Shown: piece by piece, positions 13,680-36,340 of the stretch
Numbering within the stretch: position 1 is the stretch's first letter
How the letters are laid out: each line of letters begins with the position of its first letter
Source: an uncultured virus (IMG/VR IMGVR_UViG_3300026116_000038)
Taxonomy: Duplodnaviria; Heunggongvirae; Uroviricota; Caudoviricetes
IMG/VR virus record: IMGVR_UViG_3300026116_000038
Direction: 5' to 3' (one strand)
Length of the DNA stretch: 64,000 bases
Program-made: the position numbers and the translations under genes
Notes under the pieces: model-generated
Database searches by the model: none
What the model was told of the DNA's origin: nothing
Seen by the model: the letters and a program-made list of their open reading frames with translations, nothing else

Positions 13680-13940
13680 ATGACGAAAATATTTTCTATA
13701 AAATATAAATTTGGTATTTGTTGGTATAAAAATGGCACAGATACTCTTCATAAAGAGACAGGGCCAGCTAAAATATATTCTAATGGTTCCAGATTTTGGT
13801 ATAAGAACGGATTAGCACATAGAACTGATGGTCCAGCTAGAGAGTTTATTAATGGTAAAAAAGAGTATTGGTTAAATGGGATTAAATATCCATATATTAA
13901 AACTAATGAAGAATGGTTAATATTTCAAATTATAAATTGA
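13680..13940 (+). CDS. HRxDGPA repeat protein, family A
   Basis: Start adjusted to MTKIFS; tail [12 protein letters not shown]. Confidence 0.8.
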   Translation: MTKIFSIKYKFGICWYKNGTDTLHKETGPAKIYSNGSRFWYKNGLAHRTDGPAREFINGKKEYWLNGIKYPYIKTNEEWLIFQIIN

Positions 13941-13941
13941 T

Positions 13942-14205
13942 ATGACTAAAGTTTTTTATGAAATAGATGAGTATGGAACTATTCGCTGGTATAAAAAAAA
14001 TACAGATATTCTTCATAGAGAAGAAGGACCTGCTGTAGAATGGAATGATGGAACTAAATGTTGGTACCAAAATGGTGAACTTCACAGAAAAGACGGTCCT
14101 GCAATAGAATGTATAGATGGATATAAAGAATATTATTTAAATGATATTTTTTATCTAGATATTAAAACTGATGAAGAATGGGTTATATTTCAAATTATAA
14201 ATTAA
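13942..14205 (+). CDS. HRxDGPA repeat protein, family A
   Basis: 2 repeats plus conserved tail. Confidence 0.85.
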   Translation: MTKVFYEIDEYGTIRWYKKNTDILHREEGPAVEWNDGTKCWYQNGELHRKDGPAIECIDGYKEYYLNDIFYLDIKTDEEWVIFQIIN

Positions 14206-14206
14206 T

Positions 14207-14470
14207 ATGACTAAAGTGTCTTCTGAAAAAGATGTATTTGGAAATATTCGTTGGTATAAAGAGGGTACGGATATTCTTCATAGAGAAAATGGTCCAGCTG
14301 TAGAATTTGCCAATGGAACTAAAGCTTGGTATCAAAATGGAAAATATCATAGAACTGATGGACCCGCTATAGAATATGTTGATGGAAATAAATATTATTA
14401 TTTAAATAATAAATATTGCCCAGATATTAAAACTGATGAAGATTGGTTAATATTTCAAATTATAAATTGA
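14207..14470 (+). CDS. HRxDGPA repeat protein, family A
   Basis: 2 repeats plus conserved tail. Confidence 0.85.
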   Translation: MTKVSSEKDVFGNIRWYKEGTDILHRENGPAVEFANGTKAWYQNGKYHRTDGPAIEYVDGNKYYYLNNKYCPDIKTDEDWLIFQIIN

Positions 14471-14471
14471 T

Positions 14472-14735
14472 ATGATTAAAGTGTTTTTTGAAACAGATGA
14501 ACGGGGTACTGTTTATTGGTTTATCGAAGGTACTAGATATCTTCATAGAGAAAATGGTCCAGCTATAGAATATGCTGATGGACATAAAGAGTGGTATCAA
14601 AATGGAAAACTTCATAGAGAAGATGGTCCTGCTGTAGAATGGATAGATGGATATAAAGAATATTGGTTAAATAATGAATATTATCCATATATTAAAACTG
14701 ACGAAGAGTGGATTATATTTCAAATTATAAATTAA
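14472..14735 (+). CDS. HRxDGPA repeat protein, family A
   Basis: 2 repeats plus conserved tail. Confidence 0.85.
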   Translation: MIKVFFETDERGTVYWFIEGTRYLHRENGPAIEYADGHKEWYQNGKLHREDGPAVEWIDGYKEYWLNNEYYPYIKTDEEWIIFQIIN

Positions 14736-14736
14736 T

Positions 14737-15000
14737 ATGACTAAAGTATATTCTAAAATAGATGCATATGGAACTATTTTTTGGTATAAAGAAGGAACAA
14801 ATATTCGTCACAGAGAAGATGGTCCAGCTGTAGAATATGCTGATGGGTCTAATTTTTGGTATCAAAATGGAAAATATCATAGATTAAATGGACCTGCTAA
14901 AGTTTATTATAATGGATATAAAGAATATTATTTAAATGGAAAACATTATCCGGATATTAAAACTGATAAAGAATGGTTAATATTTTTAATTATAAATTAA
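14737..15000 (+). CDS. HRxDGPA repeat protein, family A
   Basis: 2 repeats plus conserved tail. Confidence 0.85.
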   Translation: MTKVYSKIDAYGTIFWYKEGTNIRHREDGPAVEYADGSNFWYQNGKYHRLNGPAKVYYNGYKEYYLNGKHYPDIKTDKEWLIFLIIN

Positions 15001-15001
15001 A

Positions 15002-15274
15002 ATGACTGCAGTATATTCTGAAATAGATGAATATGGAACTATTCGTTGGTGTAAAAAAGGTACATATCTTCTTCACAGAGAAGATGGACCAGCTAAAGAA
15101 TATGTTAATGGAACTGAATATTGGTATCAATACGGAAAACTTCACAGAGAAGATGGTCCTGCTATAGTATATTATAATGGATATAAAAAATATAAAGAAT
15201 ATTATCTAAATGATATTTATTATCCAGATATTTCTTCTGATGAGGAGTGGATAATATTTCAAATATTAAATTAA
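15002..15274 (+). CDS. HRxDGPA repeat protein, family A
   Basis: 2 repeats plus conserved tail. Confidence 0.85.
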   Translation: MTAVYSEIDEYGTIRWCKKGTYLLHREDGPAKEYVNGTEYWYQYGKLHREDGPAIVYYNGYKKYKEYYLNDIYYPDISSDEEWIIFQILN

Positions 15275-15275
15275 T

Positions 15276-15539
15276 ATGACAAAAGTATATTCTAAAATAG
15301 ATGCATATGGAAATATTTTTTGGTATAAAGAAGGAACAAATATTCTTCATAGAGAAGATGGTCCAGCTGTAGAGTTGTATTATGGCGGTAAAATGTGGTA
15401 CCAAAATGGAAAACGTCATAGAGAAGATGGTCCGGCAAAAGAATGGAATAATGGAGATAAAGAATATTGGTTAAATGGAAGATTTTATCCAGATATTAAA
15501 ACTGATAAAGAATGGCTTATTTATTTAATTATTAATTAA
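15276..15539 (+). CDS. HRxDGPA repeat protein, family A
   Basis: 2 repeats plus conserved tail. Confidence 0.85.
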   Translation: MTKVYSKIDAYGNIFWYKEGTNILHREDGPAVELYYGGKMWYQNGKRHREDGPAKEWNNGDKEYWLNGRFYPDIKTDKEWLIYLIIN

Positions 15540-17680: not shown

Positions 17681-17938
17681 ATGTCTGATAGAAATGGATT
17701 AGTTATAGTATGTGGAAATAAATATTGGTATAAAGATAATGAATTTCATAGATTAGACGGGCCTGCTATAGAATATATAGATGGAACTACAATTTGGTAT
17801 CAAAATGGAATTGTTCATAGGAAAGATGGGCCAGCAGTAATATATGATAATGGTAAAAAGGAATATTGGTTAGATAATATTTATTATCCAGATGTTAATT
17901 CTGATGAAGAATGGTTAATATTTCAAATTATAAATTAA
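17681..17938 (+). CDS. HRxDGPA repeat protein, family A
   Basis: 2 repeats plus conserved tail. Confidence 0.85.
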   Translation: MSDRNGLVIVCGNKYWYKDNEFHRLDGPAIEYIDGTTIWYQNGIVHRKDGPAVIYDNGKKEYWLDNIYYPDVNSDEEWLIFQIIN

Positions 17939-17939
17939 T

Positions 17940-18272
17940 ATGACTAAAGTCTATTCTAGTATAGATAAATATAATAACATTCATTGGTATAAAGAAGGTA
18001 CAAATATTCGTCATAGGGATGACGGTCCAGCTATAGAATGTACCAATGGAACCAAATATTGGTATCAAAATGGTATCTTTCATAGAGAAAGTGGGCCCGC
18101 ATTAGAATTTTATGATGGAGAAAAGTGGTGGTGCTATGATGGAAAGCGTCATAGAATTGATGGCCCTGCTGTAGAATATGAAAATGGAGGAAAAGAATAT
18201 TGGTTAAATGGTAAATGGTATATAGATATTAACACTGATGAAGAGTGGTTAATATTTCAAATTATAAATTAA
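17940..18272 (+). CDS. HRxDGPA repeat protein, family A
   Basis: 3 repeats plus conserved tail. Confidence 0.85.
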   Translation: MTKVYSSIDKYNNIHWYKEGTNIRHRDDGPAIECTNGTKYWYQNGIFHRESGPALEFYDGEKWWCYDGKRHRIDGPAVEYENGGKEYWLNGKWYIDINTDEEWLIFQIIN

Positions 18273-18273
18273 T

Positions 18274-18675
18274 ATGACTAAAGTAGTTTGTAAAACAAAT
18301 GAACTTAGTAATCTTTATTGGTATAAAGAAGGTACTAATATTCTTCATAGGGAAGACGGACCAGCTGTAGAGTGTTCTAATGGAGGTAAGTTTTGGTATC
18401 AAAATGATCTATACCATAGAATAGATGGCCCAGCATTAGAGTGGAATGATGGAGAAAAACAATGGTTCAAAAATGGATTATGTCATAGAGAGAATGGCCC
18501 AGCAATAGAATGGATTAATGGTGATAAACATTGGTGTATTAATGGAGAAATTCATAGAATAGATGGTCCCGCTGTAGAATACATAAATGGAGATAAACAA
18601 TATTGGTTGAATAATAAATATTATCCAGATATTAAAACTGATGAAGAGTGGATTATATTTCAGATAATTAATTAA
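18274..18675 (+). CDS. HRxDGPA repeat protein, family A
   Basis: 4 repeats plus conserved tail. Confidence 0.85.
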   Translation: MTKVVCKTNELSNLYWYKEGTNILHREDGPAVECSNGGKFWYQNDLYHRIDGPALEWNDGEKQWFKNGLCHRENGPAIEWINGDKHWCINGEIHRIDGPAVEYINGDKQYWLNNKYYPDIKTDEEWIIFQIIN

Positions 18676-18677
18676 AA

Positions 18678-19010
18678 ATGACTAAAGTATATTCAAAAAA
18701 AGATAAATATGGAAATATTTATTGGTGTAAAGAAGGTACAAATATTCTTCATAGAGAAGATGGTCCAGCTATAGAATTTGTTGATGGAACTAAGCATTGG
18801 TATCAAAATGATATGTGGCATAGAGCTGATGGACCAGCTATAGAAAATAACTCTGGACATAAAGAATGGTACCAGAGTGAAAAATGTCATAGAACGGATG
18901 GTCCTGCTGTAATATGGCCTAATGGTGATAAAGAATATTGGTTAAATGATAAACCATACCCAAATATTAAAACTGATGAAGAATGGATTATATTTCAAAT
19001 TATAAATTAA
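18678..19010 (+). CDS. HRxDGPA repeat protein, family A
   Basis: 3 repeats plus conserved tail. Confidence 0.85.
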   Translation: MTKVYSKKDKYGNIYWCKEGTNILHREDGPAIEFVDGTKHWYQNDMWHRADGPAIENNSGHKEWYQSEKCHRTDGPAVIWPNGDKEYWLNDKPYPNIKTDEEWIIFQIIN

Positions 19011-19013
19011 GCC

Positions 19014-19042
19014 TTGACAAATTGATACGTAAGATCTATTAT
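19014..19042 (+). promoter_or_regulatory. sigma70 promoter for tRNA-Asn
   Basis: TTGACA-N17-TATTAT. Confidence 0.7.
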
Positions 19043-19057
19043 ATAGATAATAAACAT

Positions 19058-19130
19058 TCCAGCTTAGCTCAGTTGGTAGAGCAGGCGGCTGTTAACCGCC
19101 GGGTCCAAGGTTCGAGTCCTTGAGCTGGAG
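19058..19130 (+). tRNA. tRNA-Asn(GTT)
   Basis: TCCAGCT/AGCTGGA acceptor stem, GCTC/GAGC D-stem, GGCGG-CTGTTAA-CCGCC anticodon arm, TTCGAGT T-loop; followed by CTA, not CCA. Confidence 0.95.
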
Positions 19131-19155
19131 CTACTTTTTTAAATAGAAATAAAAA

Positions 19156-19566
19156 ATGGATAATAAAACAACATTAGATTTAGTTGATAATGTAATAAAC
19201 AAAATTAGCAATGGAGTAGAACATATAGCCAATTCCGTTGCTAAAGTTACTCCGGATGCTTGGAAAATTTTGGTCCATTATCAGCGGATGTTAGCAATAC
19301 AAGAAATCATTAAAGGCATTGGATATAGTGTAATTATTATGCTAATATTACTTGTTTATAAAAAATTAGTTTATAATATGTTTCTTAAACTTATTAAAAC
19401 TGATTCTTATTTTGTTTTTTCGCAAGCCATTTGCGGTGCAATTGTTTTAATTTTTTCTATGCTTCTTTTAAATGATAGTATAGATTTAATCTCTAATGGT
19501 ATTATAAGATATAATTCTCCAGATTATTTTGCTGTAAAAGAATTGATTACAACAATTACGAAATAA
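19156..19566 (+). CDS. membrane protein (2 TM)
   Basis: Two hydrophobic segments. Confidence 0.6.
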   Translation: MDNKTTLDLVDNVINKISNGVEHIANSVAKVTPDAWKILVHYQRMLAIQEIIKGIGYSVIIMLILLVYKKLVYNMFLKLIKTDSYFVFSQAICGAIVLIFSMLLLNDSIDLISNGIIRYNSPDYFAVKELITTITK

Positions 19567-19568
19567 TT

Positions 19569-20123
19569 ATGATTGATAAATTAAATGTAATTAAATATAT
19601 TGAAAATAGATTGAAATTAATTCAACGAAAACATAATTTTAATCCTAATTCTGGTAAAAAACAAATAAAGAATCTACCAGAATTAGAAGATGATTTTCTT
19701 ATATTTCAAGAATATATTAAATTAATTAAAAAATGTAAATTGAATATTCATATTAAATATGATCCATTAGGTTTGGATAAAAAATCTATTAGTAAAATTA
19801 AAAATAGAAAAACTCAAGTTTATTTTGCTAGACATTCGAATGATCCAACTATATGGAAAATTGGATTATCTATTGCTCCAAATAAACGAGTAAAAAATAT
19901 TCAAGTTGGTAATCCTGAGCATTTCCAAACAATTTACACAATAGATGGAAATCTAAAATTAAAAAATGCTATTAAATACTATACATCTAAATATCACTTA
20001 GATGGCGGAACTGAATGGCGCAGATTAGATGAAAACGTTATAAAAACTATAATTCAAAAAATTAAAGAATCAGGGACGAATTTTTTATATAAGTCTAAAT
20101 TAGATTTAAATATTAATTCTTGA
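19569..20123 (+). CDS. GIY-YIG-superfamily (T5orf172/MUG113-like) protein
   Basis: VYFAR....WKIGLS..PNKRVKNIQVGNP ... GTEW. Confidence 0.7.
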   Translation: MIDKLNVIKYIENRLKLIQRKHNFNPNSGKKQIKNLPELEDDFLIFQEYIKLIKKCKLNIHIKYDPLGLDKKSISKIKNRKTQVYFARHSNDPTIWKIGLSIAPNKRVKNIQVGNPEHFQTIYTIDGNLKLKNAIKYYTSKYHLDGGTEWRRLDENVIKTIIQKIKESGTNFLYKSKLDLNINS

Positions 20124-20173
20124 CATATACCCATTTACGATTTACATATAATACATAACCAATAAATAATATT

Positions 20174-22270
20174 ATGGAACCAGTTAAAAAATCCAACGCT
20201 CGTAAAACTTCAACCTCTGAAACGAAAGTGTATTCTTATGGAGCTTTTCTTCCTAAAGAATCAGAGCAAATTAAATTAATTAATGATCAATTATATTTTG
20301 CGCATAAATACCGAAACAAACTTGTAGAAATTGAACGAAAGCGTCGAAATCGCTTCCGTAACCTTCGTAAATTAATGTCACCAGAATTACGTCAGCTGGA
20401 AAACGATCTACTTCTCACTGAAGAGAAAATTATTGAATTACGTAAAAGTTTTGGCGGCCGTGCGGAAAATAGTTTAGATCCTAAATTTCCTAAAAAAAAT
20501 CGTCAGTTAACTCCGCAAGCTGTAGAAATTAAGGATTTAAAATTAAAGAAAAAAGATTTAAGTGCTAAGATTAAATCTATTCATACTCAATTAAATTTAG
20601 ATTATTTCAAAGAAGCTGATAGTAAATTTTCTCTTCTAAAGAAAGAACGCTTAGAACAAAAAGCTAAAGAATTAAATAAGGATTCTCTTGGTCCAAATGA
20701 TGTTAATCGTCACAATGTAGTGAATAATCTCTACAAAGAAATGATTGATGGTGGAAATAGGTTTTGGGCTATCAAAGCGAAAATTTCTAAATCAGCTGAA
20801 GCATCAAATAAACGAGCAAGAAGTAATTGCAAATGCTCAAGTGGAACTTATGTTAGTATTGAAGAGGCTGCAAAACAATCCTTTTCAAATTCTAAATTTG
20901 AGCCAAAATTTAAATCATTTGATGGTTCAGGAAAAATTGGCATGCAGCTTACTCAAAATAAAGGTCTGTCAATTAAAGATGCCCTAAGTGGGTCAAGTCC
21001 TGTTCTTAAGATTGATTTACATCCAGAAGTTTATTTACGGCAAAATAAAAAGAAAAATAAAGTTTTAGCTACAGCGCGCATTAAACTTTTTGGCACTGAA
21101 AAAACTGGAAAGTTTGTAGATATTCCTTTTATTATGCATCGCCAAATGCCAGAAGATGCTACAATTAAATGGGTATTTTTAGTTGTATCTAAAATTGGAT
21201 ATCGTAGTATTTATAATATTCAATTTACGATTGAGTCTAATTCATTTACTCAGCCTTCAGCTATTCGTCCAGATGATGTTGCTATTAATTTAGGATGGAA
21301 AGTAAATGATCAAACAGATGATATTACCGTTGCTACTAGCTTTGATGGTAAAAATTATAATGAATTAATTTTGCCTTCTAAGATGCGTGCAAATATAGTT
21401 TATAAAGAAACATTGATTAGTCATGCTGATAAACATTTTGATTCTGTTAAGAAAGATGTATCAAAATGGTTAAAGAATTCAAATTTAGATGAATGTATTA
21501 CGAAATATTTCACAAATTTGCCACAGTGGAGATCGCATAAAAAACTTCTATTCGTCTCTAAAGAATTAGCTAAAGTATTTTTACCAGATAATACTTGGTA
21601 TGATCTTTGGAAAAAATGGAAAACTCATTGTAAAGAAAATAAACCTTGGAAAAATTGTAGTGATAAAGATGATTTATTTACAACATTAGATAATACTATT
21701 CAGTGGTGTAAAGATAATTCGATTGATGATCCCAATGTTCAGATGGCTTTTTATTTAAAGACTTGGGCAGAAAAAGAAATTCATTTAATTAATTGGGCCC
21801 GTGGTATTGAATCAAAACTTCGAAAACATCGAAAAGAAATTTACCGTTGTTTTGCAAAGAAGTTATCTAGCACCTATGGAAAGGTTATCGTTGAAAACTG
21901 GGATAAATCTAAAACTGCCGAAACTCCTGATGTTGAAAATGATAATCGTACAAAGCAAGAAGAAAATGCTAATGCGGTGCGTCAATTTGTTGGAGTAAGT
22001 GTTTTAACTGACGCACTAAAGCAGAAATTTGGAAAAGATTTTTGTGAAGAAAACGCAAAAAATATTTCTAAAGAACATTTTAAATGTGGCGGAGAATTAA
22101 TTAATCAAAAAGAATTATCAGACGTACATTGTAAAAAATGTAATAAATCTGTAAACGTTAATTACAATGCGGCAGCTCACTTGTTTGATCGACATGGCGA
22201 GCGGTCTGGTGCTGTGAAATTACCCGGAACCGCTCGCAAAACACGTAAGTCACCAGAATTATTAGCTTAA
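20174..22270 (+). CDS. cas12m: type V CRISPR effector, Cas12m-like (V-M / V-U1 / C2c4), predicted DNase-inactive RuvC
   Basis: Motifs collinear with Cas12m as recalled: QLYFAHKYRNKLVEIE, FDGSGKIGMQL, DIPFIMHRQMP, VAINLGWK (RuvC-I, N372), QWRS, HRKEIYR, VIVENWD (E574), HxxC...CxxC Zn finger, NVNYNAA (RuvC-III, N663); CRISPR array immediately downstream. Confidence 0.85.
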   Translation: MEPVKKSNARKTSTSETKVYSYGAFLPKESEQIKLINDQLYFAHKYRNKLVEIERKRRNRFRNLRKLMSPELRQLENDLLLTEEKIIELRKSFGGRAENSLDPKFPKKNRQLTPQAVEIKDLKLKKKDLSAKIKSIHTQLNLDYFKEADSKFSLLKKERLEQKAKELNKDSLGPNDVNRHNVVNNLYKEMIDGGNRFWAIKAKISKSAEASNKRARSNCKCSSGTYVSIEEAAKQSFSNSKFEPKFKSFDGSGKIGMQLTQNKGLSIKDALSGSSPVLKIDLHPEVYLRQNKKKNKVLATARIKLFGTEKTGKFVDIPFIMHRQMPEDATIKWVFLVVSKIGYRSIYNIQFTIESNSFTQPSAIRPDDVAINLGWKVNDQTDDITVATSFDGKNYNELILPSKMRANIVYKETLISHADKHFDSVKKDVSKWLKNSNLDECITKYFTNLPQWRSHKKLLFVSKELAKVFLPDNTWYDLWKKWKTHCKENKPWKNCSDKDDLFTTLDNTIQWCKDNSIDDPNVQMAFYLKTWAEKEIHLINWARGIESKLRKHRKEIYRCFAKKLSSTYGKVIVENWDKSKTAETPDVENDNRTKQEENANAVRQFVGVSVLTDALKQKFGKDFCEENAKNISKEHFKCGGELINQKELSDVHCKKCNKSVNVNYNAAAHLFDRHGERSGAVKLPGTARKTRKSPELLA

Positions 22271-22276
22271 ATTTGG

Positions 22277-22305
22277 TTGACGTTTGCCTGAATCGTGACT
22301 ATAAT
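22277..22305 (+). promoter_or_regulatory. CRISPR leader promoter
   Basis: TTGACG-N17-TATAAT, 80 bp upstream of repeat 1; sets the array orientation as +. Confidence 0.8.
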
Positions 22306-22385
22306 CATTGCGTGATGGGGTGTAAACGTAACCTCTCGCAATGTGCTTCGTAGATCTTTGAAAATATAAGTAATTTTGATCGCCC

Positions 22386-23721
22386 GTTGGCAATAGAAGC
22401 TAACCTCTATAAGCGTTAGACCTGTAATAGATGTTGGCAGCCATTTTTGCACCCACTGTTGGCAATAGAAGCTAACCTCTATAAGCGTTAGACCGATTCT
22501 GCCATTACTTTCCAGCGGGATCTAAGTCGGTTGGCAATAGAAGCTAACCTCTATAAGCGTTAGACCGCATCCAAGTAGGCGCCAAGTTTATCCCCCTTGG
22601 TGTTGGCAATAGAAGCTAACCTCTATAAGAGTTAGACGACACTTTGAATCGAAATGCTCACGTTAGGTATGACTGCGTCAATAGAAGCTAACTTCTATAA
22701 AAGTTAGACTATGACGAACAGTGCAAAGGCGAAAACACACTAGGCAGTAATTTAATTACATCATCAATAGTAGCTAATCTCTATAAGAATTAGACAGATT
22801 GTGACAGAAATTTTAACAAAATAACAAACGTCAGCAATAGAAGCTAACCTTTATAAGAGTTAGGCTTGCGGCCAGTCACCAACGCAGTCTCCGGTTCTTA
22901 CGTTATCAACAATAGAAACTAACCTCTATAAGAGTTAGGCGGGCCTGGCGTCACTGAGGGCGGTCAGTAATAGAAACTAACCTCTATAAGAGTTTAGACG
23001 TGAGGATTAAATGATGGTGTCGAGTGCCACTCTCGACTGGCATCAATAGAAACTAACATCTATAAGAGTTAAATGCGTAAAGCTGCTGACCGATCAAAAA
23101 AATAGTGCGAAGTCAGCAATAGAAGCTAACCTCTCTAAGAGTTAGACGAAATGGTGATGGCAGACATCCTCCACCACATAGCGGCATCAATAGAAACTAA
23201 CCTCTATAAGAGTTAGACGGCCCTCCAACCGCAAATCGCGCGAAGCGGTCGATGTCAATAATAGAAGCTAACCTCTATGAGAGTTAGATTAGTCGTCCGA
23301 ATATCTTATTCTTTCTCACCGGCCCGTCAGTAATAGAAGCTAACCTCTATGAGAGTTAGGCAAATAATAGTCCACGTACTAGACATCATCGTCACCATAT
23401 TAGCAATAGAAACTAACCTCTATAAGAGTTAGGCCCGAGACTAAATGGTGGGATCGAGTGCCACTTTCAACAGCATCAATAGAAGCTAACCTCTATAAGA
23501 GTTAGACACGTTTCTCGTCGACATGATTAAATTTGGCTTCAACAAACAATATCAGCTAACTAATATAAGAATTAACGACAGTAAGAAGTTCAATCGCACT
23601 GAAACAAGATATTAAGTAATAGTTGCTAACTACTATAAATGTTAGACTACAACGGCGGTATCATGATGATATTTGAAAGATCAAGCAAATAATAGCAGCT
23701 AATCGCTAAAAAGAATTAGAC
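22386..23721 (+). CRISPR. CRISPR array, 19 repeats (36-bp consensus GTTGGCAATAGAAGCTAACCTCTATAAG(C/A)GTTAGAC) and 18 spacers (22-50 bp, mostly 34-39)
   Basis: Repeat starts approx. 22386, 22458, 22530, 22602, 22674, 22760, 22830, 22905, 22963, 23039, 23112, 23183, 23254, 23326, 23399, 23472, 23542, 23612, 23685. First three identical; later copies degenerate but keep the CTAAC/GTTAG hairpin. Confidence 0.95.
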
Positions 23722-23875
23722 CAGTTTCTGCACTATGCTGTTTATTAAATAATAAGCCGCTTGACAATGTAATTAAATACAGTACGAAGATTACGGATTG
23801 TAAATATCAGGTAACCGTAATAATATTTAAAGCAGATATTGTAATAATAACTTAATTATACCTTAAAATTAAAGT

Positions 23876-24580
23876 TTACTTGGATTTTAAATGTTTGCGA
23901 ATAGCATTATCACTTACACCTAATTTTCGTCCAACTGCTGAGTAATTAGATTCTGAAAGCATTTTCAATAATTCTTCATTTGAAGGCCATTGAATTTTAG
24001 TTTGACGGAAAAATTTGATTCTATCACGTAAATTTTCTCTATCTAAAAAATTAGATAATGCAGTAGAAGATACTTCTAACCATAAAGCTGTTTTATTTAA
24101 ATTAGTATTATTTATACTTTCAATAATTTTATTAATTTCTTCTTCAGTTTTATTGATTAATTCTTTACATATGTGACTTTTTAATTCAATATTAATAATA
24201 TGTTCATCGAAATTACTCATGTCTAAATGTGGATTATGATGATGAGTATGACATAGATGACATAATAATTGGCATTTTTCCACCTCAAGTGTTAATTCTT
24301 TTAAAGATCTATTTCCTAGGGACCTTCCATCAACATTAAATTTTTTTTTACTAGGGTCTATATGATGAAAAACTAATCCAGCCATGTTTTGTTTATACCC
24401 GCAAATTTCACAACATCCTCCCTTTTTATTTATAAAGTATAGTTTTCTATTGATTCCGCGGTCTTTTTGTATAGAATAATTATTATTTTTTGAATTAAAA
24501 TATTTTGTTTTACAAGTTTGTGAACAAAATTTTGATTGACAATTTTCAATTTCAGTATTACATATTACACATAAGTTCAT
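23876..24580 (-). CDS. HNH homing endonuclease-like protein with Zn ribbon and C-terminal HTH
   Basis: CEICGY...LVFHHIDP...KCQLLCHLCHTHHH; YSAVGRKLGVSDNAIRK; next to a tRNA gene. Confidence 0.85.
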   Translation of the reverse strand: MNLCVICNTEIENCQSKFCSQTCKTKYFNSKNNNYSIQKDRGINRKLYFINKKGGCCEICGYKQNMAGLVFHHIDPSKKKFNVDGRSLGNRSLKELTLEVEKCQLLCHLCHTHHHNPHLDMSNFDEHIINIELKSHICKELINKTEEEINKIIESINNTNLNKTALWLEVSSTALSNFLDRENLRDRIKFFRQTKIQWPSNEELLKMLSESNYSAVGRKLGVSDNAIRKHLKSK

Positions 24581-24649
24581 ACCATTCCTCTCGATGTTAT
24601 GAACTTATTCAGATTTATTAATAGATTTTATAAAGAATTTTAAAAACGC

Positions 24650-24678
24650 TTGACAATATAAGTTAATGAACTTAGACT
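24650..24678 (+). promoter_or_regulatory. sigma70 promoter for the tRNA-Ile2/tilS unit
   Basis: TTGACA-N17-TAGACT. Confidence 0.7.
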
Positions 24679-24698
24679 AAAGATAGTACAAACATTAC

Positions 24699-24776
24699 GG
24701 GCCGTTAGCTCAATAGGTCTAGAGCAAAAAACTCATAATTTTGAGGCTGTAGGTTCAAGTCCTACACGGCCCACCA
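24699..24776 (+). tRNA. tRNA with CAT anticodon, most likely tRNA-Ile2 (lysidine-modified)
   Basis: GGGCCGT/ACGGCCC acceptor with C4-G69 and C5-G68, A73, encoded CCA; loop CTCATAA; adjacent to tilS. Confidence 0.9.
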
Positions 24777-24802
24777 TTTTTAATAAAATGAAATTGGAGC
24801 AA

Positions 24803-24838
24803 AATATTAATATCAGCTAACCGATATAAGAGTTAGAT
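24803..24838 (+). repeat. orphan copy of the CRISPR repeat
   Basis: AATATTAATATCAGCTAACCGATATAAGAGTTAGAT; shares AATATCAGCTAAC with array repeat 17 and TATAAGAGTTAGA with most repeats. Confidence 0.8.
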
Positions 24839-24843
24839 AAAAA

Positions 24844-25536
24844 ATGAAACTCGAACGAAATATTCACAAAGCATTAACTGAATCAATTAATCGAAACTAT
24901 AAAACTCCTACTAAATTTACTTTAGGAGTATCTGGTGGTTCTGATTCACAATGTTTGCTTGTATCTTTTCCTCGAGTAGCAAGAGAATTGGGTCATGATT
25001 GTATTGCAGTAGGAATCAATCATGGTCTAAGAAATGAAGCTAATTCAGAACTTGATTTAGCAGAAAATCTTGCTTTAAAAATCAATGTTCCTTTTTATCG
25101 CAAGGTGGTAAAAGTGATTGATGGTCCGGAAGGAATACAATCACATGCAAGGAAAGCAAGATATGATGCATTGTTTGAATATGGCAATGTAATAGTAACT
25201 GCACATCATTTTGACGATTATGCAGAGACTGTTATGATCAGACTTTTGCGTGGTAAAAATATTGGCTCATTAAATGTTTTGCCAGAAGTGTCTAATAATG
25301 GTATTGGAATTTTCAGGCCATTACTCTCTGTACCTAAAAACAGAATTTTAGCACATTTAAAGCGGTGGAATATTTTATATGCAAATGATCCGTCAAATGA
25401 GAATATGGATTATTTAAGAGTTAAAGTTAGAAAAGAAATTCTACCTTTATTAGAAAGTATTAATCCTCAAATTAAAAATAGACTGGTAGAAATTTCACAA
25501 GAATTACAAATTGGAAATCAATTAAATAATTTATAA
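24844..25536 (+). CDS. tilS: tRNA(Ile)-lysidine synthetase (catalytic domain only)
   Basis: GVSGGSDS PP-loop, NHGLR, ARKARY, TAHHFDDYAET, RPLL, DPSN..R..VR. Confidence 0.92.
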   Translation: MKLERNIHKALTESINRNYKTPTKFTLGVSGGSDSQCLLVSFPRVARELGHDCIAVGINHGLRNEANSELDLAENLALKINVPFYRKVVKVIDGPEGIQSHARKARYDALFEYGNVIVTAHHFDDYAETVMIRLLRGKNIGSLNVLPEVSNNGIGIFRPLLSVPKNRILAHLKRWNILYANDPSNENMDYLRVKVRKEILPLLESINPQIKNRLVEISQELQIGNQLNNL

Positions 25537-25915
25537 TGGAAAAATTTATTGTTATACTTATAGTTTTAATATTACTTATTTTTATATATTTAAATATACG
25601 AACTAAGCTACGTGGAAGATGTAAAAATTGTGGATGTAAAACTACTCGAGCTTATTGTTGGTATTGTGAAATAGGTATAAATAAATGAAAAACGAAGATT
25701 ATATAACAAAAGAAGAATTATTATCTATTCTTAATAAAATAGAAGATAGGGCTAGATTATATAATAATTTAGAAACAAAATATAATCCTGTTTTGGAAGC
25801 TAAAATTTCTATTTGTTCAGAATTAATACAATTGTTAACATTCAATAAAATATTATATTAAATATAATTAATCTTTAGATTTAATTATAAAAAACTTTGA
25901 GAATATATTTATTAG

Positions 25916-26152
25916 ATGAAATATAAAATCAAAATGAAACCGAATAATTATAATAGAAATTATTATACAAGTGATTGTGGTATTTTTACTGCTTATTATT
26001 CTACATATTGTGGTTTACATAATGTAAGTGGCCCGGCGATAAAATATCATGATGAAAGATTTTTTTATAAAAACGAATATTGGTTAAACAATATTCATTA
26101 TTCAGATATAAAAAATGATGAAGAGTGGTTAATATTTCAAATAATTAATTGA
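25916..26152 (+). CDS. family A member with a single repeat
   Basis: HNVSGPA plus tail [12 protein letters not shown]. Confidence 0.75.
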   Translation: MKYKIKMKPNNYNRNYYTSDCGIFTAYYSTYCGLHNVSGPAIKYHDERFFYKNEYWLNNIHYSDIKNDEEWLIFQIIN

Positions 26153-26155
26153 AAA

Positions 26156-26428
26156 ATGATTAAAATATACAGCAAAGAATTTGAAAATCGCATTGAATGG
26201 TATAAAGAAAATGATAATGAAGGATATTTGATCTACCATAGAGAAGATGGTCCGGCAATAGAATGGTATGATGGAACAAAATGGTGGTATCAAAATGGAA
26301 GACGCCACAGAACAGATGGTCCTGCTATAGAATGCATTGATGGTCGTAAAGCATATTATTTATATGGGAAACATTATCCAGATATTAAAACTGATGAAGA
26401 ATGGGTTATATTCCAAATATTAAATTAA
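26156..26428 (+). CDS. HRxDGPA repeat protein, family A
   Basis: 2 repeats plus tail. Confidence 0.85.
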   Translation: MIKIYSKEFENRIEWYKENDNEGYLIYHREDGPAIEWYDGTKWWYQNGRRHRTDGPAIECIDGRKAYYLYGKHYPDIKTDEEWVIFQILN

Positions 26429-26757
26429 TGACAAAAATATATTCAAAAATAGAGTATTGTAATATTTATTGGTATAAAGAAGGTACAGATATTTTACATA
26501 GAGAAGATGGTCCGGCTGTAGAATATGCTGATGGAGAAAAGCGATGGTACCAAAATGGGAAAATTCACAGAGTAGATGGTCCAGCAATAGAATATCCTAA
26601 TGGAAGTAGATGGTGGGTTATTAATGGACAGTTTCATAGGACAGATGGTCCAGCTTTAGAAATGAAGAATAGTTATAAGCAATATTGGTTGTATGGAAAT
26701 GAATATTCAAATATTCACTCTGACGAAGAGTGGATTATATTTCAAATATTAAATTAA
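26428..26757 (+). CDS. HRxDGPA repeat protein, family A
   Basis: Start adjusted to MTKIYS (TAATG overlap); 3 repeats plus tail. Confidence 0.85.
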   Translation: MTKIYSKIEYCNIYWYKEGTDILHREDGPAVEYADGEKRWYQNGKIHRVDGPAIEYPNGSRWWVINGQFHRTDGPALEMKNSYKQYWLYGNEYSNIHSDEEWIIFQILN

Positions 26758-26758
26758 T

Positions 26759-27091
26759 ATGACAAAAGTTTATTCAAAAACAGATAAATACGGAAATATT
26801 TTTTGGTATAAAGAAGGTACAACTATTCTTCATAGAGAAGATGGCGCTGCTGTAGAATATTTTAATGGTAATAAATATTGGTATCAATATGGATTGCTTC
26901 ATAGAAAAAATGGTCCAGCAATAGAATTTTCTAATGGTGATAAATGTTGGTATCAAAATGGATTATGCCATAGAGTTGATGGTCCAGCAATGGAATCCCC
27001 AAATGAATATAAAAGTTATTTTTTAAATGGAAAAGATTATCCAGATATTCAAACTGATGAAGAATGGTTAATATTTCAAATAGTGAATTAA
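26759..27091 (+). CDS. HRxDGPA repeat protein, family A
   Basis: 3 repeats plus tail. Confidence 0.85.
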   Translation: MTKVYSKTDKYGNIFWYKEGTTILHREDGAAVEYFNGNKYWYQYGLLHRKNGPAIEFSNGDKCWYQNGLCHRVDGPAMESPNEYKSYFLNGKDYPDIQTDEEWLIFQIVN

Positions 27092-27106
27092 AAAAATCGC
27101 TAAGAG

Positions 27107-29689: not shown

Positions 29690-29717
29690 TTCTTAATTCT
29701 TAATTCTTAATTTTTAA
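29683..29717 (+). repeat. 7-bp tandem repeat (TTCTTAA x4 plus TTTTTAA)
   Basis: Read directly; joins the FtsK stop to the next ATG. Confidence 0.85.
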
Positions 29718-29977
29718 TGATTAAAGTATATTTTATAACAGATGAATATGGAACTACTTATTGGTACAAAGAAGGTACATATATTCTTCATAAAGATGAT
29801 GGTCCAGCAGTAGAATATATTGATGGAAGTAAATTTTGGTTTCAAAATGGAAGACGCCATAGAATTGATGGTCCTGCCGTAGAATATATGCGTGGAAAAG
29901 AATATTGGTTAAATGATAAATCATACCCAGATATTAAAACTGATAAAGAATGGTTAATATTTCAGATAATTAATTAA
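29717..29977 (+). CDS. HRxDGPA repeat protein, family A
   Basis: 2 repeats plus tail. Confidence 0.85.
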   Translation: MIKVYFITDEYGTTYWYKEGTYILHKDDGPAVEYIDGSKFWFQNGRRHRIDGPAVEYMRGKEYWLNDKSYPDIKTDKEWLIFQIIN

Positions 29978-29978
29978 T

Positions 29979-30240
29979 ATGAATAATATATATAAAAAAA
30001 ATATGTATGAATCATATTGCTTGGTACCAAGAAGGTACAGATATTCTTCATAGAGAAGATGGTCCAGCTATAGAGTGGAATCATGGAACCAAATATTGGT
30101 ATCAAAACGGAAAATTACATAGAATAGATGGTCCAGCTGTAGAATATTGGAATGGTGAAAAAGAATATTGGTTATATAATAAGGCGTATAGAAATATAAA
30201 AAATGATGAAGAATGGTTAATATTTCAAATAATAAATTAA
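29979..30240 (+). pseudogene. family A member with a +1 frameshift in an A8 tract near the 5' end (restart ATG at 30007 possible)
   Basis: ATG 29979 (MNNIYKK) is out of frame with 30007..30240; paralogue 30841 has A7 at this site. Confidence 0.6.
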
Positions 30241-30241
30241 A

Positions 30242-30574
30242 ATGACTAAAGTTTATTCTCAAATAGATGAACATGGAAATATTTGTTGGTATAAAGAAGG
30301 AACATATATTCTTCATGGAATAAATGGTCCAGCTGTAGAATATTCTAATGGAAGTAAATGTTGGTATCAAAATGGATTATGCCATAGAGCAGATGGTCCT
30401 GCTATAGAACATGACAGTGGAGCTAAAGAATGGCACCAAAATGGTGAGCTTCATCGAACGGATGGTCCAGCTATAGAGTATGAAGACGGAAGAAAAGAAT
30501 ATTGGTTAAATAATAAACGTTATCCAAATATAAAAACTAATGAAGAATGGATTATATTTCAAATAATTAATTAA
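30242..30574 (+). CDS. HRxDGPA repeat protein, family A
   Basis: 3 repeats plus tail. Confidence 0.85.
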   Translation: MTKVYSQIDEHGNICWYKEGTYILHGINGPAVEYSNGSKCWYQNGLCHRADGPAIEHDSGAKEWHQNGELHRTDGPAIEYEDGRKEYWLNNKRYPNIKTNEEWIIFQIIN

Positions 30575-30575
30575 A

Positions 30576-30839
30576 ATGACGAAAGTTTTTTCAAAAAAGG
30601 ATAAATATGAAACCATTCATTAGTATAAAAAAGAGACTGAAATTCTTCATAGAGACGACGGCCCAGCTGTAGAATATACTGATGGAACTAAATTTTGGTA
30701 TCAAAATGGTAAAATTCATAGAACTGATGGGCCAGCTATAGCATATTATGATAAATATAAAGAATATTGGTTAAATAATAAATATTATGAAAATATAAAT
30801 AGTGATGAAAAATGGTTAATATTTCAGATAATTAATTAA
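30576..30839 (+). pseudogene. family A member with an in-frame TAG at a conserved Trp
   Basis: MTKVFSKKDKYETIH*YKKE...[15 protein letters not shown] at 30621. Confidence 0.8.
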
Positions 30840-30840
30840 T

Positions 30841-31101
30841 ATGGATAATATATATAAAAAAATATCTGGAGGTCATATTTCCTGGTATAAAGAAGAAACT
30901 GATGTTCGTCATAGAGAAGATGGTCCTGCAATAGAATGGAATAATGGAACTAAACATTGGTATCAAAACGGGGAATTGCATAGAGTAGATGGTCCGGCTG
31001 TAGAGTATTGGAATGGTGATAAAGAATATTGGTTGTATGATAAACGTTACCCGAATATTAAAGCTGATGAAGAGTGGATTATATTTCAAATTATAAATTA
31101 A
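30841..31101 (+). CDS. HRxDGPA repeat protein, family A
   Basis: 2 repeats plus tail. Confidence 0.85.
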   Translation: MDNIYKKISGGHISWYKEETDVRHREDGPAIEWNNGTKHWYQNGELHRVDGPAVEYWNGDKEYWLYDKRYPNIKADEEWIIFQIIN

Positions 31102-31163
31102 AAATAGTTGACATTATACTAGTTAAGACTTATATTTAAATTGAAGAACGAAAGAATACTTAA

Positions 31164-34955: not shown

Positions 34956-35285
34956 ATGACTGAGCTATATAAAACAAGATTTCCCGGACGAACAGTGTGG
35001 TGTAGAAAAGATACTGATCTTTGGCATAAAGAAGATGGACCTGCAGTAGAATGGGATTCTGGAACTAAAGAATGGTATCAAAATGGATTATGTCATAGAG
35101 TAGATGGCCCTGCAGTAGAAGATATTGTTGGTAATAAATTTTGGTATCAAAACGGTCAACGTCATAGGGAAGATGGTCCTGCTATAGAATATGAAAATGG
35201 AAATAAATATTATTATTTAAATGATGAATGTTATCCAAATATTAAAACTAACGAGGAGTGGGTAATATTTCAAATTATAAATTAA
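34956..35285 (+). CDS. HRxDGPA repeat protein, family A
   Basis: 3 repeats plus tail. Confidence 0.85.
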   Translation: MTELYKTRFPGRTVWCRKDTDLWHKEDGPAVEWDSGTKEWYQNGLCHRVDGPAVEDIVGNKFWYQNGQRHREDGPAIEYENGNKYYYLNDECYPNIKTNEEWVIFQIIN

Positions 35286-35286
35286 T

Positions 35287-35619
35287 ATGACAAAAGTATA
35301 TTCTAAAATGGATGAATATGGAAATATTCGTTGGTATAAAGAAGGCACATATCTTCTCCACAGAGATGATGGTCCAGCTGTAGAATACTTAAATGGTGAT
35401 AAAGTTTGGTATCAAAATGGAGAATTACATAGAATAGATGGTCCAGCTATAAATCATTTTAATGGAAGTAAATGGTGGATTATTAATGGAAAACTTCATA
35501 GGACAGAAGGTCCGGCTTTAGAATATGAAGACGGAGATAAAGAATATTGGTTAAATAATAAACATTATTCAAATATAAAAACTAATGAAGAATGGATTAT
35601 ATTTCAAATTATAAATTAA
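35287..35619 (+). CDS. HRxDGPA repeat protein, family A
   Basis: 3 repeats plus tail. Confidence 0.85.
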   Translation: MTKVYSKMDEYGNIRWYKEGTYLLHRDDGPAVEYLNGDKVWYQNGELHRIDGPAINHFNGSKWWIINGKLHRTEGPALEYEDGDKEYWLNNKHYSNIKTNEEWIIFQIIN

Positions 35620-35620
35620 T

Positions 35621-35953
35621 ATGACTAAAGTATATTCTGAAAAAGATGTATGTGGAACTACCCGTTGGTATAAAGAAGATACACATACTTTTCATAGAGA
35701 AGACGGGCCTGCTATAGAATTCTATAATGGAAATAAATTTTGGTTTCAAAATGGTAAATATCATAGAATAGGTGGTTCAGCAGTTGAACTTCATGATGGA
35801 ACTAAATTGTGGTATCAAAATGGATTATGTCATAGAACAGATGGTCCTGCTGTAGAATATGAAAATGGAGGAAAAGAATATTGGTTAAATGGTAGATATT
35901 ATTCAAATATTAAAACTGACGAAGAGTGGATTATATTTCAAATTATAAATTAA
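35621..35953 (+). CDS. HRxDGPA repeat protein, family A
   Basis: 3 repeats plus tail. Confidence 0.85.
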   Translation: MTKVYSEKDVCGTTRWYKEDTHTFHREDGPAIEFYNGNKFWFQNGKYHRIGGSAVELHDGTKLWYQNGLCHRTDGPAVEYENGGKEYWLNGRYYSNIKTDEEWIIFQIIN

Positions 35954-35962
35954 AATAATAAA

Positions 35963-36340
35963 ATGTATAAAAAAATAATTAAATATTTGAAAGTTTTTAT
36001 TCAAAAAGATAATAATTTAATTTATAAAAAAATATCTGAAGATAAAATAGAATGGCGTAGGAAAGATAATAATTTTTTACATAAAGAAGATGGACCTGCT
36101 AGAATATATAATAATGGAGATAAATTTTGGTTTCAAAATGGTAAATATCATAGGCTAGATGGTCCTGCATTAGAATTTACTGATGGAGAAAAGTGGTGGT
36201 ATCAAAATGGTAAATGTCATAGGACAGATGGTCCTGCGATAGAAGGTGAAGACGGAGAAAAAGAATATTGGTTAGATAATATTTATTATCCAGATATTAA
36301 TTCTGATGAAGAATGGTTAATATTTCAAATTATAAATTAA
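35963..36340 (+). CDS. HRxDGPA repeat protein, family A
   Basis: 3 repeats plus tail. Confidence 0.85.
   Translation: MYKKIIKYLKVFIQKDNNLIYKKISEDKIEWRRKDNNFLHKEDGPARIYNNGDKFWFQNGKYHRLDGPALEFTDGEKWWYQNGKCHRTDGPAIEGEDGEKEYWLDNIYYPDINSDEEWLIFQIIN

Follow-up and report, generated by a model that had tools for sequence, protein, structure and literature searches.

The stretch analysed here comprises 64,000 nt of an uncultured virus of the Caudoviricetes (IMG/VR record IMGVR_UViG_3300026116_000038; the whole stretch is called the window below) and carries a lone clustered regularly interspaced short palindromic repeat (CRISPR) between a tRNA gene and tilS. Our analysis suggests that the 56 nt at 24783-24838 are probably a recent, strain-specific insertion of CRISPR-array-type DNA at the junction of tRNA-CAU and tilS, which has given this phage a solitary repeat unit. 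The block is made of copy A (24783-24808), a diverged tilS 5' end of 5 nt leader and seven codons, and the core of a solitary Cas12m repeat (24809-24838), which is the predicted handle of a guide RNA. Copy B (24839-24864), the real tilS leader and first seven codons, follows directly and occupies the place of the spacer, or guide, after the repeat. All these features lie on the plus strand. In a sister strain that has the same genes the repeat is missing, and hence we favour a recent insertion over a conserved control switch.

A search of the window with the pattern CTAACNNNTATAAGNGTTAG, allowing up to three mismatches, gave 35 matches on both strands where shuffles lead one to expect 1.03. 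On the plus strand 18 of the 19 matches are inside the array and one, without any mismatch, is at 24817-24836. This orphan is the sole repeat match outside the array in the window, and no further copy outside the array was found in G001, a viral record of 131 kb that is 100% identical to the window over 19500-26000; other parts of the genome may carry additional lone repeats. Its core is identical to the array repeats R04, R13 and R16 at 25/30 positions and to R17 at 24/30, and AATATCAGCTAAC is common to the orphan and R17. A decayed twentieth repeat (R20, 23803-23832, plus strand), recognised from the repeat family D3 and from reading of the sequence, matches the orphan at 14 of its first 15 nt, including the orphan-type TC and CG variants. 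By these resemblances the orphan is assigned to the old trailer-end repeat type of the phage's own array, that of R17 and the decayed R20.

A first-pass annotation, made from the letters alone, had placed a repeat copy at 24803-24838. The copy is real, but the similarity spans only 24809-24838, and 24803-24808 is part of the tilS-like duplication. Most of what it had read around this copy was borne out: the repeat ends at 24838, leaving 5 nt before the tilS ATG at 24844; the CTAAC/GTTAG stem is intact, all 10 pairs of both stems being formed; a diverged copy of the tilS start lies upstream (21/26 identical over 26 nt), behind a T-run at 24777-24781; an upstream open reading frame (uORF) of 10 codons, MKLEQNINIS, runs from the ATG at 24788 to a TAA at 24818-24820 inside the repeat; and the gene between array and tilS does match PHROG families of HNH endonucleases.

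The duplication of 26 nt (24783-24808 and 24839-24864) is far above chance. Matches of at least 21/26 at offsets of 27-120 form 0-2 clusters per shuffled 64 kb (20 block shuffles), and all 47 other real clusters of this kind outside the array sit in other repeated DNA, where 38 follow the 69-nt period of a family of repeat genes described below. By our reading four of the five differences between the copies fall within the seven duplicated codons, where three are synonymous (TTG/CTC for Leu, GAG/GAA for Glu) and one is nonsynonymous (CAA/CGA). The copies differ at 5/26 positions whereas the flanks differ by 1.4-8% between strains, so one copy probably comes from a diverged template. The tilS gene has stayed intact because its start was duplicated. 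Copy A begins just past TTTA/TTA, at the end of a TTTTTA (24777-24782, plus strand) that resembles a TTN-type protospacer adjacent motif (PAM), and its position 11 nt past the tRNA equals the spacing of the tilS start in the allele of the sister strain.

This allele was found in public sequencing runs. A run search returned four holders of words from the window; X1, with 0.97 of the sampled words, is probably its source sample, and X2, with 0.47, is a soil run of a different study and independent of X1. Contigs of both were mapped onto 19000-26500 of the window. An X2 contig (record 13, depth 6.1, 2584 nt) runs over 23478-24782 and continues at 24839-26135, so that exactly 56 nt are left out; the joint has at least 255 letters on either side, one letter of its position being ambiguous, and it joins TTTTTA, there flanking the tilS start, directly to the tilS leader. 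The flanks are 92-99% identical to the window. X2 carries cas12m, the array, the HNH gene, tRNA-CAU and tilS; records 9 and 10 cover its cas12m and leader (19828-22413) with 90 differences over 2044 nt and 19 over 555 nt, and its array pieces include a 36-nt spacer that is absent from the window. The independent assembly of X1 (record 6, 23478-26393, 2916 nt) has the filled form with 0 differences from the window. None of the holders was listed as an RNA run; X3, guessed to be one, gave only scattered contigs of 151 nt and none over 24660-25000. A gain in the window's lineage is favoured over a loss in X2, since loss by recombination between the copies would leave a chimera of A and B, and the X2 joint suggests a B-type sequence from position 2 on.

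More distant relatives of the tRNA-tilS module lack the repeat as well. Among 94 matches to TilS, 17 homologs of 223-231 aa are 68-76% identical, with variable N-termini (MKQERNI, MKPEQNI, MTLERNI and others). We retrieved 69 metagenome loci as outgroups and scanned 25 of them for tRNA genes. In six of the 25 (L013, L021, L022, L023, L024 and L042) a tRNA-CAU ends no more than 30 nt before the first aligned tilS codon, and the junction sequence was read for the two close ones, L021 and L022. L022 (TilS 72% identical) has a TTGACA promoter-like site, tRNA-CAU, 9 nt and the tilS ATG; L021 (69% identical) has tRNA-CAU, 27 nt and the tilS ATG; and neither has a repeat in between. TTGACA stands at the equivalent place upstream of the tRNA in both. 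A tilS-start pattern in the viral contigs L103 and L105 falls inside an unrelated open reading frame (ORF) and was taken as chance.

The first-pass annotation had noted that two of its options would tie CRISPR to the control of AUA decoding, and had suggested looking for the repeat in related phages, its absence from those with both cas12m and tilS counting against the tie. With the 56 nt skipped in X2, which has both cas12m and tilS, and with no repeat in L021 and L022, the site is not conserved, and the claim of CRISPR control over AUA decoding in this phage family has to be dropped. Of the three explanations that it had offered, a scar of ectopic repeat insertion fits best, as the block is missing from these same relatives. 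The other two, binding or cutting of the tRNA-tilS transcript by the effector with sequestration of the tilS start, and use of the repeat plus tilS 5' end as a CRISPR RNA (crRNA) against the upstream copy, fail as conserved devices on the same ground; they are possible as strain-specific consequences, given the intact handle, the promoter-like site and the TTTA before copy A.

How such an insertion might have arisen is suggested by its boundaries. The block ends exactly at the 3' end of the repeat, and the stretch homologous to tilS starts exactly past TTA, a TTN-type PAM; both facts fit a captured repeat-plus-spacer unit. At the left junction there is a microhomology, AATAT, shared by tilS (AATATT) and the core (AATATC). 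In the model that we propose, a repeat-plus-spacer unit, whose spacer had been taken from the tilS start of a sibling phage next to a TTA PAM, would have been copied, in the course of break repair or template switching, into the homologous site of this phage. Synthesis would have primed on the repeat core through the AATAT microhomology and copied the core and the tilS-derived spacer, and the right junction would reflect the return through the homology between spacer and tilS. A stretch just before R20 (23741-23796, plus strand) resembles the tRNA promoter region 24627-24700 with a local score of 35 against 22.8 +/- 3.4 in shuffles (1 of 200 shuffles reaches it), which hints at an earlier exchange between the two sites. 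An alternative order, the tail of a spacer followed by the next repeat, makes fewer assumptions about the ancestral allele, but both boundary facts then become coincidences. Integrase-type insertion with target duplication was rejected as the main model: a 26-nt duplication and a 30-nt insert fit neither repeat nor spacer lengths, the copies differ at 5/26, and neither Cas1 nor Cas2 was found in G001, which covers an estimated 31% of the genome.

Several points weigh against a mere recent insertion or against parts of its support. The empty allele is one contig of one run at depth 6.1, and the mapping does not report differences within about 31 nt of a joint, so that the copy-B type of the X2 start is read from the position of the joint only. 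None of the 18 spacers of the present array matches the tilS start and could be the donor in the proposed origin. Absence from a sister strain is also compatible with a new, strain-specific function, all the more with 10/10 handle pairs intact and a strong promoter-like site upstream, and the 3/4 synonymous share of the coding differences means that the uORF could be under selection. As for the handle described next, its structure was derived from the same sequences that were used to score it, which favours the structure, and shuffles reach its count of double-change pairs in 21/500 cases and its count of pair types in 42/500.

We aligned the 19 array repeats with the orphan and counted pairs over the 18 distinct rows. 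The alignment shows two interleaved stems, ATAGA/TCTAT and CTAAC/GTTAG. The cells of this handle are paired in 94.4% of cases, compared with 16.7-43.6% when the partner column is slid, and three of the 10 pairs have double-sided changes; the covariation score and the paired percentage were reached by none of 500 shuffles. The orphan forms 10/10 pairs, in two of which both partners are changed relative to most array repeats (U-A and C-G against G-C and A-U). As described in the accessible parts of PMC11013384, the repeat-derived part of Cas12m guides measures about 30 nt and contains a triplex and a pseudoknot; stems I and II are predicted in it, and no trans-activating CRISPR RNA (tracrRNA) is involved. 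The array repeats and the orphan appear to fit a two-stem pseudoknot of this kind. Because the orphan keeps the pseudoknot handle and matches the published architecture, it is a plausible binding site for the phage Cas12m and looks competent to bind it. A term search of the supplement of PMC11013384 gave no repeat sequences. In X2 the repeat R17 (23542-23577) has the changes 23560 C>T and 23575 A>G, which would restore two second-stem pairs that are broken in R17 of the window. Together the array variants and the orphan show covariation that supports a pseudoknot handle also for this very distant Cas12m ortholog.

The effector is encoded at 20174-22270 on the plus strand and has 698 aa. It matches the PDB entries 23vw_A ('Cas12m', E 3.2e-31) and 8hhl_A (Cas12m2, E 1.9e-8), and PADLOC matches it to Cas12u1 (E 2e-66); judged by this homology it is a Cas12m homolog. 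Its identity to the nearest solved Cas12m, estimated from the alignment, is about 22-25%. Some relatives are 34-48% identical and those in viral contigs merely 21-24%, and none of the fetched loci besides the phage's own record has both cas12m and tilS. In seven aligned relatives, this protein included, the position in 'INLG' is an invariant N, and the protein reads 'NVNYNAA' near residue 663, with N where the other six closest relatives have D ('DxDxNAA'). Judged by motif, the 'INLG' and 'DxNAA' positions probably belong to RuvC-I and RuvC-III. According to the accessible text of PMC11013384, which also describes blocking of transcription or replication by Cas12m, DNA is bound but not cut by all of the Cas12m variants whose sites are D-E-D, H-D-D or N-D-D. 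That text and the corresponding part of PMC10442227 report cleavage of pre-crRNA within or upstream of the repeat, independent of RuvC, and a TTN PAM for Cas12m2 and GoCas12m; in these parts of the two papers we saw no report of how far Cas12m tolerates mismatches.

What the insertion would do can be predicted from these elements. The promoter-like site of the module (24650-24678, plus strand, TTGACA-17-TAGACT, 10/12, called by consensus match alone) lies about 130 nt upstream of the orphan. Any transcript running from this tRNA promoter into tilS would contain the entire Cas12m handle, 5 nt ahead of the AUG. The effector, whose gene lies 2.6 kb upstream, would probably bind the handle and cut there, on its upstream side, and would hold about the first 20 nt of tilS including the start codon as a guide, with the AUG at guide positions 6-8. 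The output of TilS from bound transcripts should then drop. Such an effect on tilS is likely a side effect that came with the insertion, as opposed to control of AUA decoding that is conserved and under selection. At its own copy B the predicted guide would meet TTAGAT on the PAM side. Copy A has the TTTTTA flank and matches the guide at 15/20 positions (21/26 overall), with mismatches at positions 2, 12, 14, 17 and 19, and no good PAM-flanked target was found in 149 kb of the phage's own DNA. The guide appears to match the uninterrupted X2 allele, with a TTA PAM. The minimum free energy fold of 24777-24880 has a z of -0.27, 70 of 200 shuffles fold as well, and nothing masks the tilS start.

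An alternative hypothesis, which we think unlikely, is that the coupling has been selected in this strain as control of tilS at the RNA level and in cis, where Cas12m binds the handle, splits the transcript between tRNA and mRNA and masks or eliminates the tilS start; TilS output would then decrease with rising Cas12m. The handle is indeed intact, 5 nt before the AUG, on the same strand and behind the promoter-like site, the accessible parts of PMC11013384 and PMC10442227 describe tracrRNA-independent processing by Cas12m proteins, within the repeat or upstream of it, and by our reading the genes of this phage have no Shine-Dalgarno sequence, so an open leader may matter for initiation; but X2, L021 and L022 do without the block, the free RNA fold is not beyond chance (z -0.27), and there is no evident benefit in coupling TilS to Cas12m. 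Autorepression in the manner of the crlRNA/CreR regulators, with the guide from the tilS 5' end steering Cas12m to copy A and blocking transcription into tilS, we consider improbable. A match of 21/26 next to TTTA/TTA, in keeping with the TTN PAM published for Cas12m2 and GoCas12m (PMC11013384, PMC10442227, as far as their accessible parts go), and the existence of solitary repeat units that regulate through partly matching guides at PAM-flanked sites (10.1101/2024.12.27.630466, in the portion accessible) speak for this possibility. However, only 15 of the first 20 positions match and the PAM-proximal position 2 does not, while the crlRNA matches given in the same portion of 10.1101/2024.12.27.630466 are contiguous, e.g. 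16 bp with one mismatch. Moreover, the target is no promoter and lies between the tRNA and the repeat unit, the block is absent in X2, and no protospacer was found from which the PAM of this ortholog could be read.

The guide might instead be directed at siblings, as a captured and still working repeat-spacer unit that is driven by the tRNA promoter and fits the uninterrupted junction of X2-type phages with its TTA PAM; we regard this as rather doubtful. It would agree with an empty allele that, as inferred from the joint, reads TTTTTA and then a copy-B-type start, with a phage whose own copy B has TTAGAT on the PAM side and whose copy A has five mismatches, with arrays that differ in spacers between the two strains (the 36-nt X2 spacer is not in the window), with trailer-side spacers as AT-rich as these phages (24-38% GC for S6 and S16-S18), and with the ability of Cas12m to block transcription or replication (PMC11013384, in its accessible part). 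Against it, TilS and the tRNA act in trans, so that silencing a co-infecting sibling gains little unless replication is blocked, and the identity of the first 31 nt in X2 is not directly reported. With the PAM of copy B displaced by the repeat and copy A mismatched, the unit could be a self-immune, allele-specific weapon between sister phages, a thought that we put forward as possible though unlikely; if true, the weapon would be aimed at the AUA-decoding module of the siblings, or at replication through it. A decoy role, the lone repeat titrating the Cas12m of competing phages as an RNA anti-CRISPR (Racr), seems very improbable to us: viral solitary repeat units can act in this way (PMC10651486, accessible part) and this one stands behind a promoter-like site, but the phage's own Cas12m would be titrated equally, and the viral units described there are typically not associated with cas genes whereas cas12m is 2.6 kb away here. 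Finally, an assembly artefact in the window or in X2 has hardly any credibility; each allele does come from one sample only, yet the filled form recurs in the window, in G001 and in the separate X1 assembly (0 differences over 2916 nt), the X2 joint is flanked by at least 255 letters on both sides, and 31-letter words cannot collapse the copies because these are only 21/26 identical. A recent insertion of array-type DNA is the reading that we retain as the most probable.

The array itself (22386-23721, plus strand) has 19 repeats by repeat alignment. A promoter-like site at 22277-22305 on the plus strand (TTGACG-17-TATAAT, 11/12, called by pattern match alone) lies between it and cas12m. R1-R4 are near-identical and R17-R19 are degenerate; the spacers are 22-50 nt long with 24-77% GC, and the old spacers on the trailer side are AT-rich, at 24-38% GC for S6 and S16-S18. 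Over 33 nt two spacers of the family D6, 23000-23038 and 23435-23471, agree to 82%, which would fit an origin from variant forms of a single protein-coding target; no target was found for either. The array gave no blastn match in phage and plasmid collections. Exact and degenerate spacer patterns hit only the phage's own record among viral contigs and nothing in genome contigs, and when the 18 spacers were compared by short-word blast with all fetched loci and with 149 kb of this phage, nothing beyond chance-level matches of 12-20 nt came up. We also observed a single AGCTAACCAATATAAGAGTTAGAC right after a terminator-like hairpin at 1500-1523 of L101, a smaller viral record without a Cas12m match, and at the same site in L102; the first stem is not preserved in it, and the match could be fortuitous or represent a lone repeat directed at this Cas12m family.

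Next to the array, the HNH endonuclease gene occupies 23876-24580 on the minus strand (phrog_3106, E 2.3e-18); a Pfam search of it gave no match. The tRNA gene at 24699-24776 on the plus strand has the anticodon CAU and is labelled Met by ARAGORN, and we infer from its link with tilS that it is a tRNA-Ile2. The tilS gene (24844-25536, plus strand) encodes an intact protein of 230 aa that consists of the PP-loop N-terminal domain only, with matches to TIGR02432 (141.8 bits, cut-off 93.6) and PF01171 (E 1.3e-40). Rfam reported nothing significant over 19000-26000 besides two tRNAs. Among the window ORFs of at least 200 aa, the fraction of Ile codons that are ATA varies bimodally, from 0.03 to 0.51, with cas12m lowest (1/39), tilS at 2/19 and an overall count of 258/1091; some gene classes may depend on the phage tRNA-CAU/TilS pair and others not.

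Upstream of cas12m are a membrane-protein gene (19156-19566, phrog_1486) and a T5orf172/MUG113-domain gene (19569-20123, by domain match). The latter forms, with cas12m, the array and the HNH gene, an island of about 5 kb (19569-24580). In L022 (1-590) one small ORF stands where the window carries this island. Since the upstream gene of L022 is a homolog of the window membrane-protein gene (46% over 63 aa, E 4e-13), we regard the four elements as an island in front of a conserved tRNA-tilS module. The window as a whole is AT-rich, at about 20-40% GC per kb, with a gene-dense plus strand, and the source, a soil phage, must be very large because the 131 kb of G001 are estimated to be only 31% complete. 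Tandem small genes built of a 69-nt (23-aa) repeat, DGPA.E..NG.K.WY.NG..HR, lie at 337-1151, 13887-15539, 17815-18932, 26240-27092, 29716-31103 and 35025-36261. Presumably these are MORN-like. Some of their consensus units hold in-frame stop codons, suggesting decayed copies.

The filled and the empty allele in two otherwise near-identical strains form a natural pair, from which one can learn how lone repeats arise in phages equipped with type V effectors of their own, and whether lone repeat units act as guides against the unmodified allele.

Among known systems, recombination between CRISPR spacers and phage targets reportedly took place in the study of Varble et al. (2019), in host arrays and through transduction. 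The present case is similar in having homology as the substrate that moves array DNA beside a protospacer, and it differs in that a single phage genome holds both array and target and the event is a proposed one. CreTA/CreR are regulators of the solitary-repeat-unit kind. Solitary repeat units are also said to have been treated by Faure et al. (2019). The accessible portion of bioRxiv 10.1101/2024.12.27.630466 covers regulators of the crlRNA/CreR type made from solitary repeat units. Like these, the orphan has a cognate Cas effector in the same genome, and its downstream spacer-like part partly matches a nearby PAM-flanked site. In contrast, the known cases target promoters through a contiguous PAM-proximal match and their association is conserved across strains, whereas the orphan guide matches a non-promoter site at 15/20 with a mismatch at position 2 and the orphan is absent in X2, L021 and L022. 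The predicted handle resembles the type V-M (Cas12m) crRNA handle in its length of about 30 nt, its two stems and pseudoknot and the lack of a tracrRNA, and the effector has a non-canonical RuvC site; unlike the characterised type V-M systems, it belongs to a 698-aa effector of about 22-25% identity in a huge AT-rich phage and is known from sequence. We searched paper titles for solitary repeats, anti-CRISPR and phage, for phage-encoded tilS or lysidine, and for Cas12m crRNA or PAM, and none of the titles listed concerned a lone repeat that is cognate to the Cas12m of a phage or located at tilS.

Viral solitary repeat units, including Racr, are described in the accessible part of Camara-Wilpert et al. 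2023 (PMC10651486). The orphan is like them a single repeat-like unit outside an array in a phage genome (64-kb window, 131-kb G001), and it resembles a real repeat (25/30 in sequence and 10/10 predicted pairs). A promoter-like site, by consensus match alone, lies about 130 nt upstream of it; for such units a promoter is expected within about 250 bp. The described units mimic host repeats and are typically without a link to cas genes, whereas the orphan corresponds to the Cas12m array of the phage itself, at a distance of 1.1 kb, and sits in the leader of a protein-coding gene, tilS, part of which is duplicated beside it. The closest known kind is the viral solitary repeat unit, though in this phage it is not separate from the cas genes.

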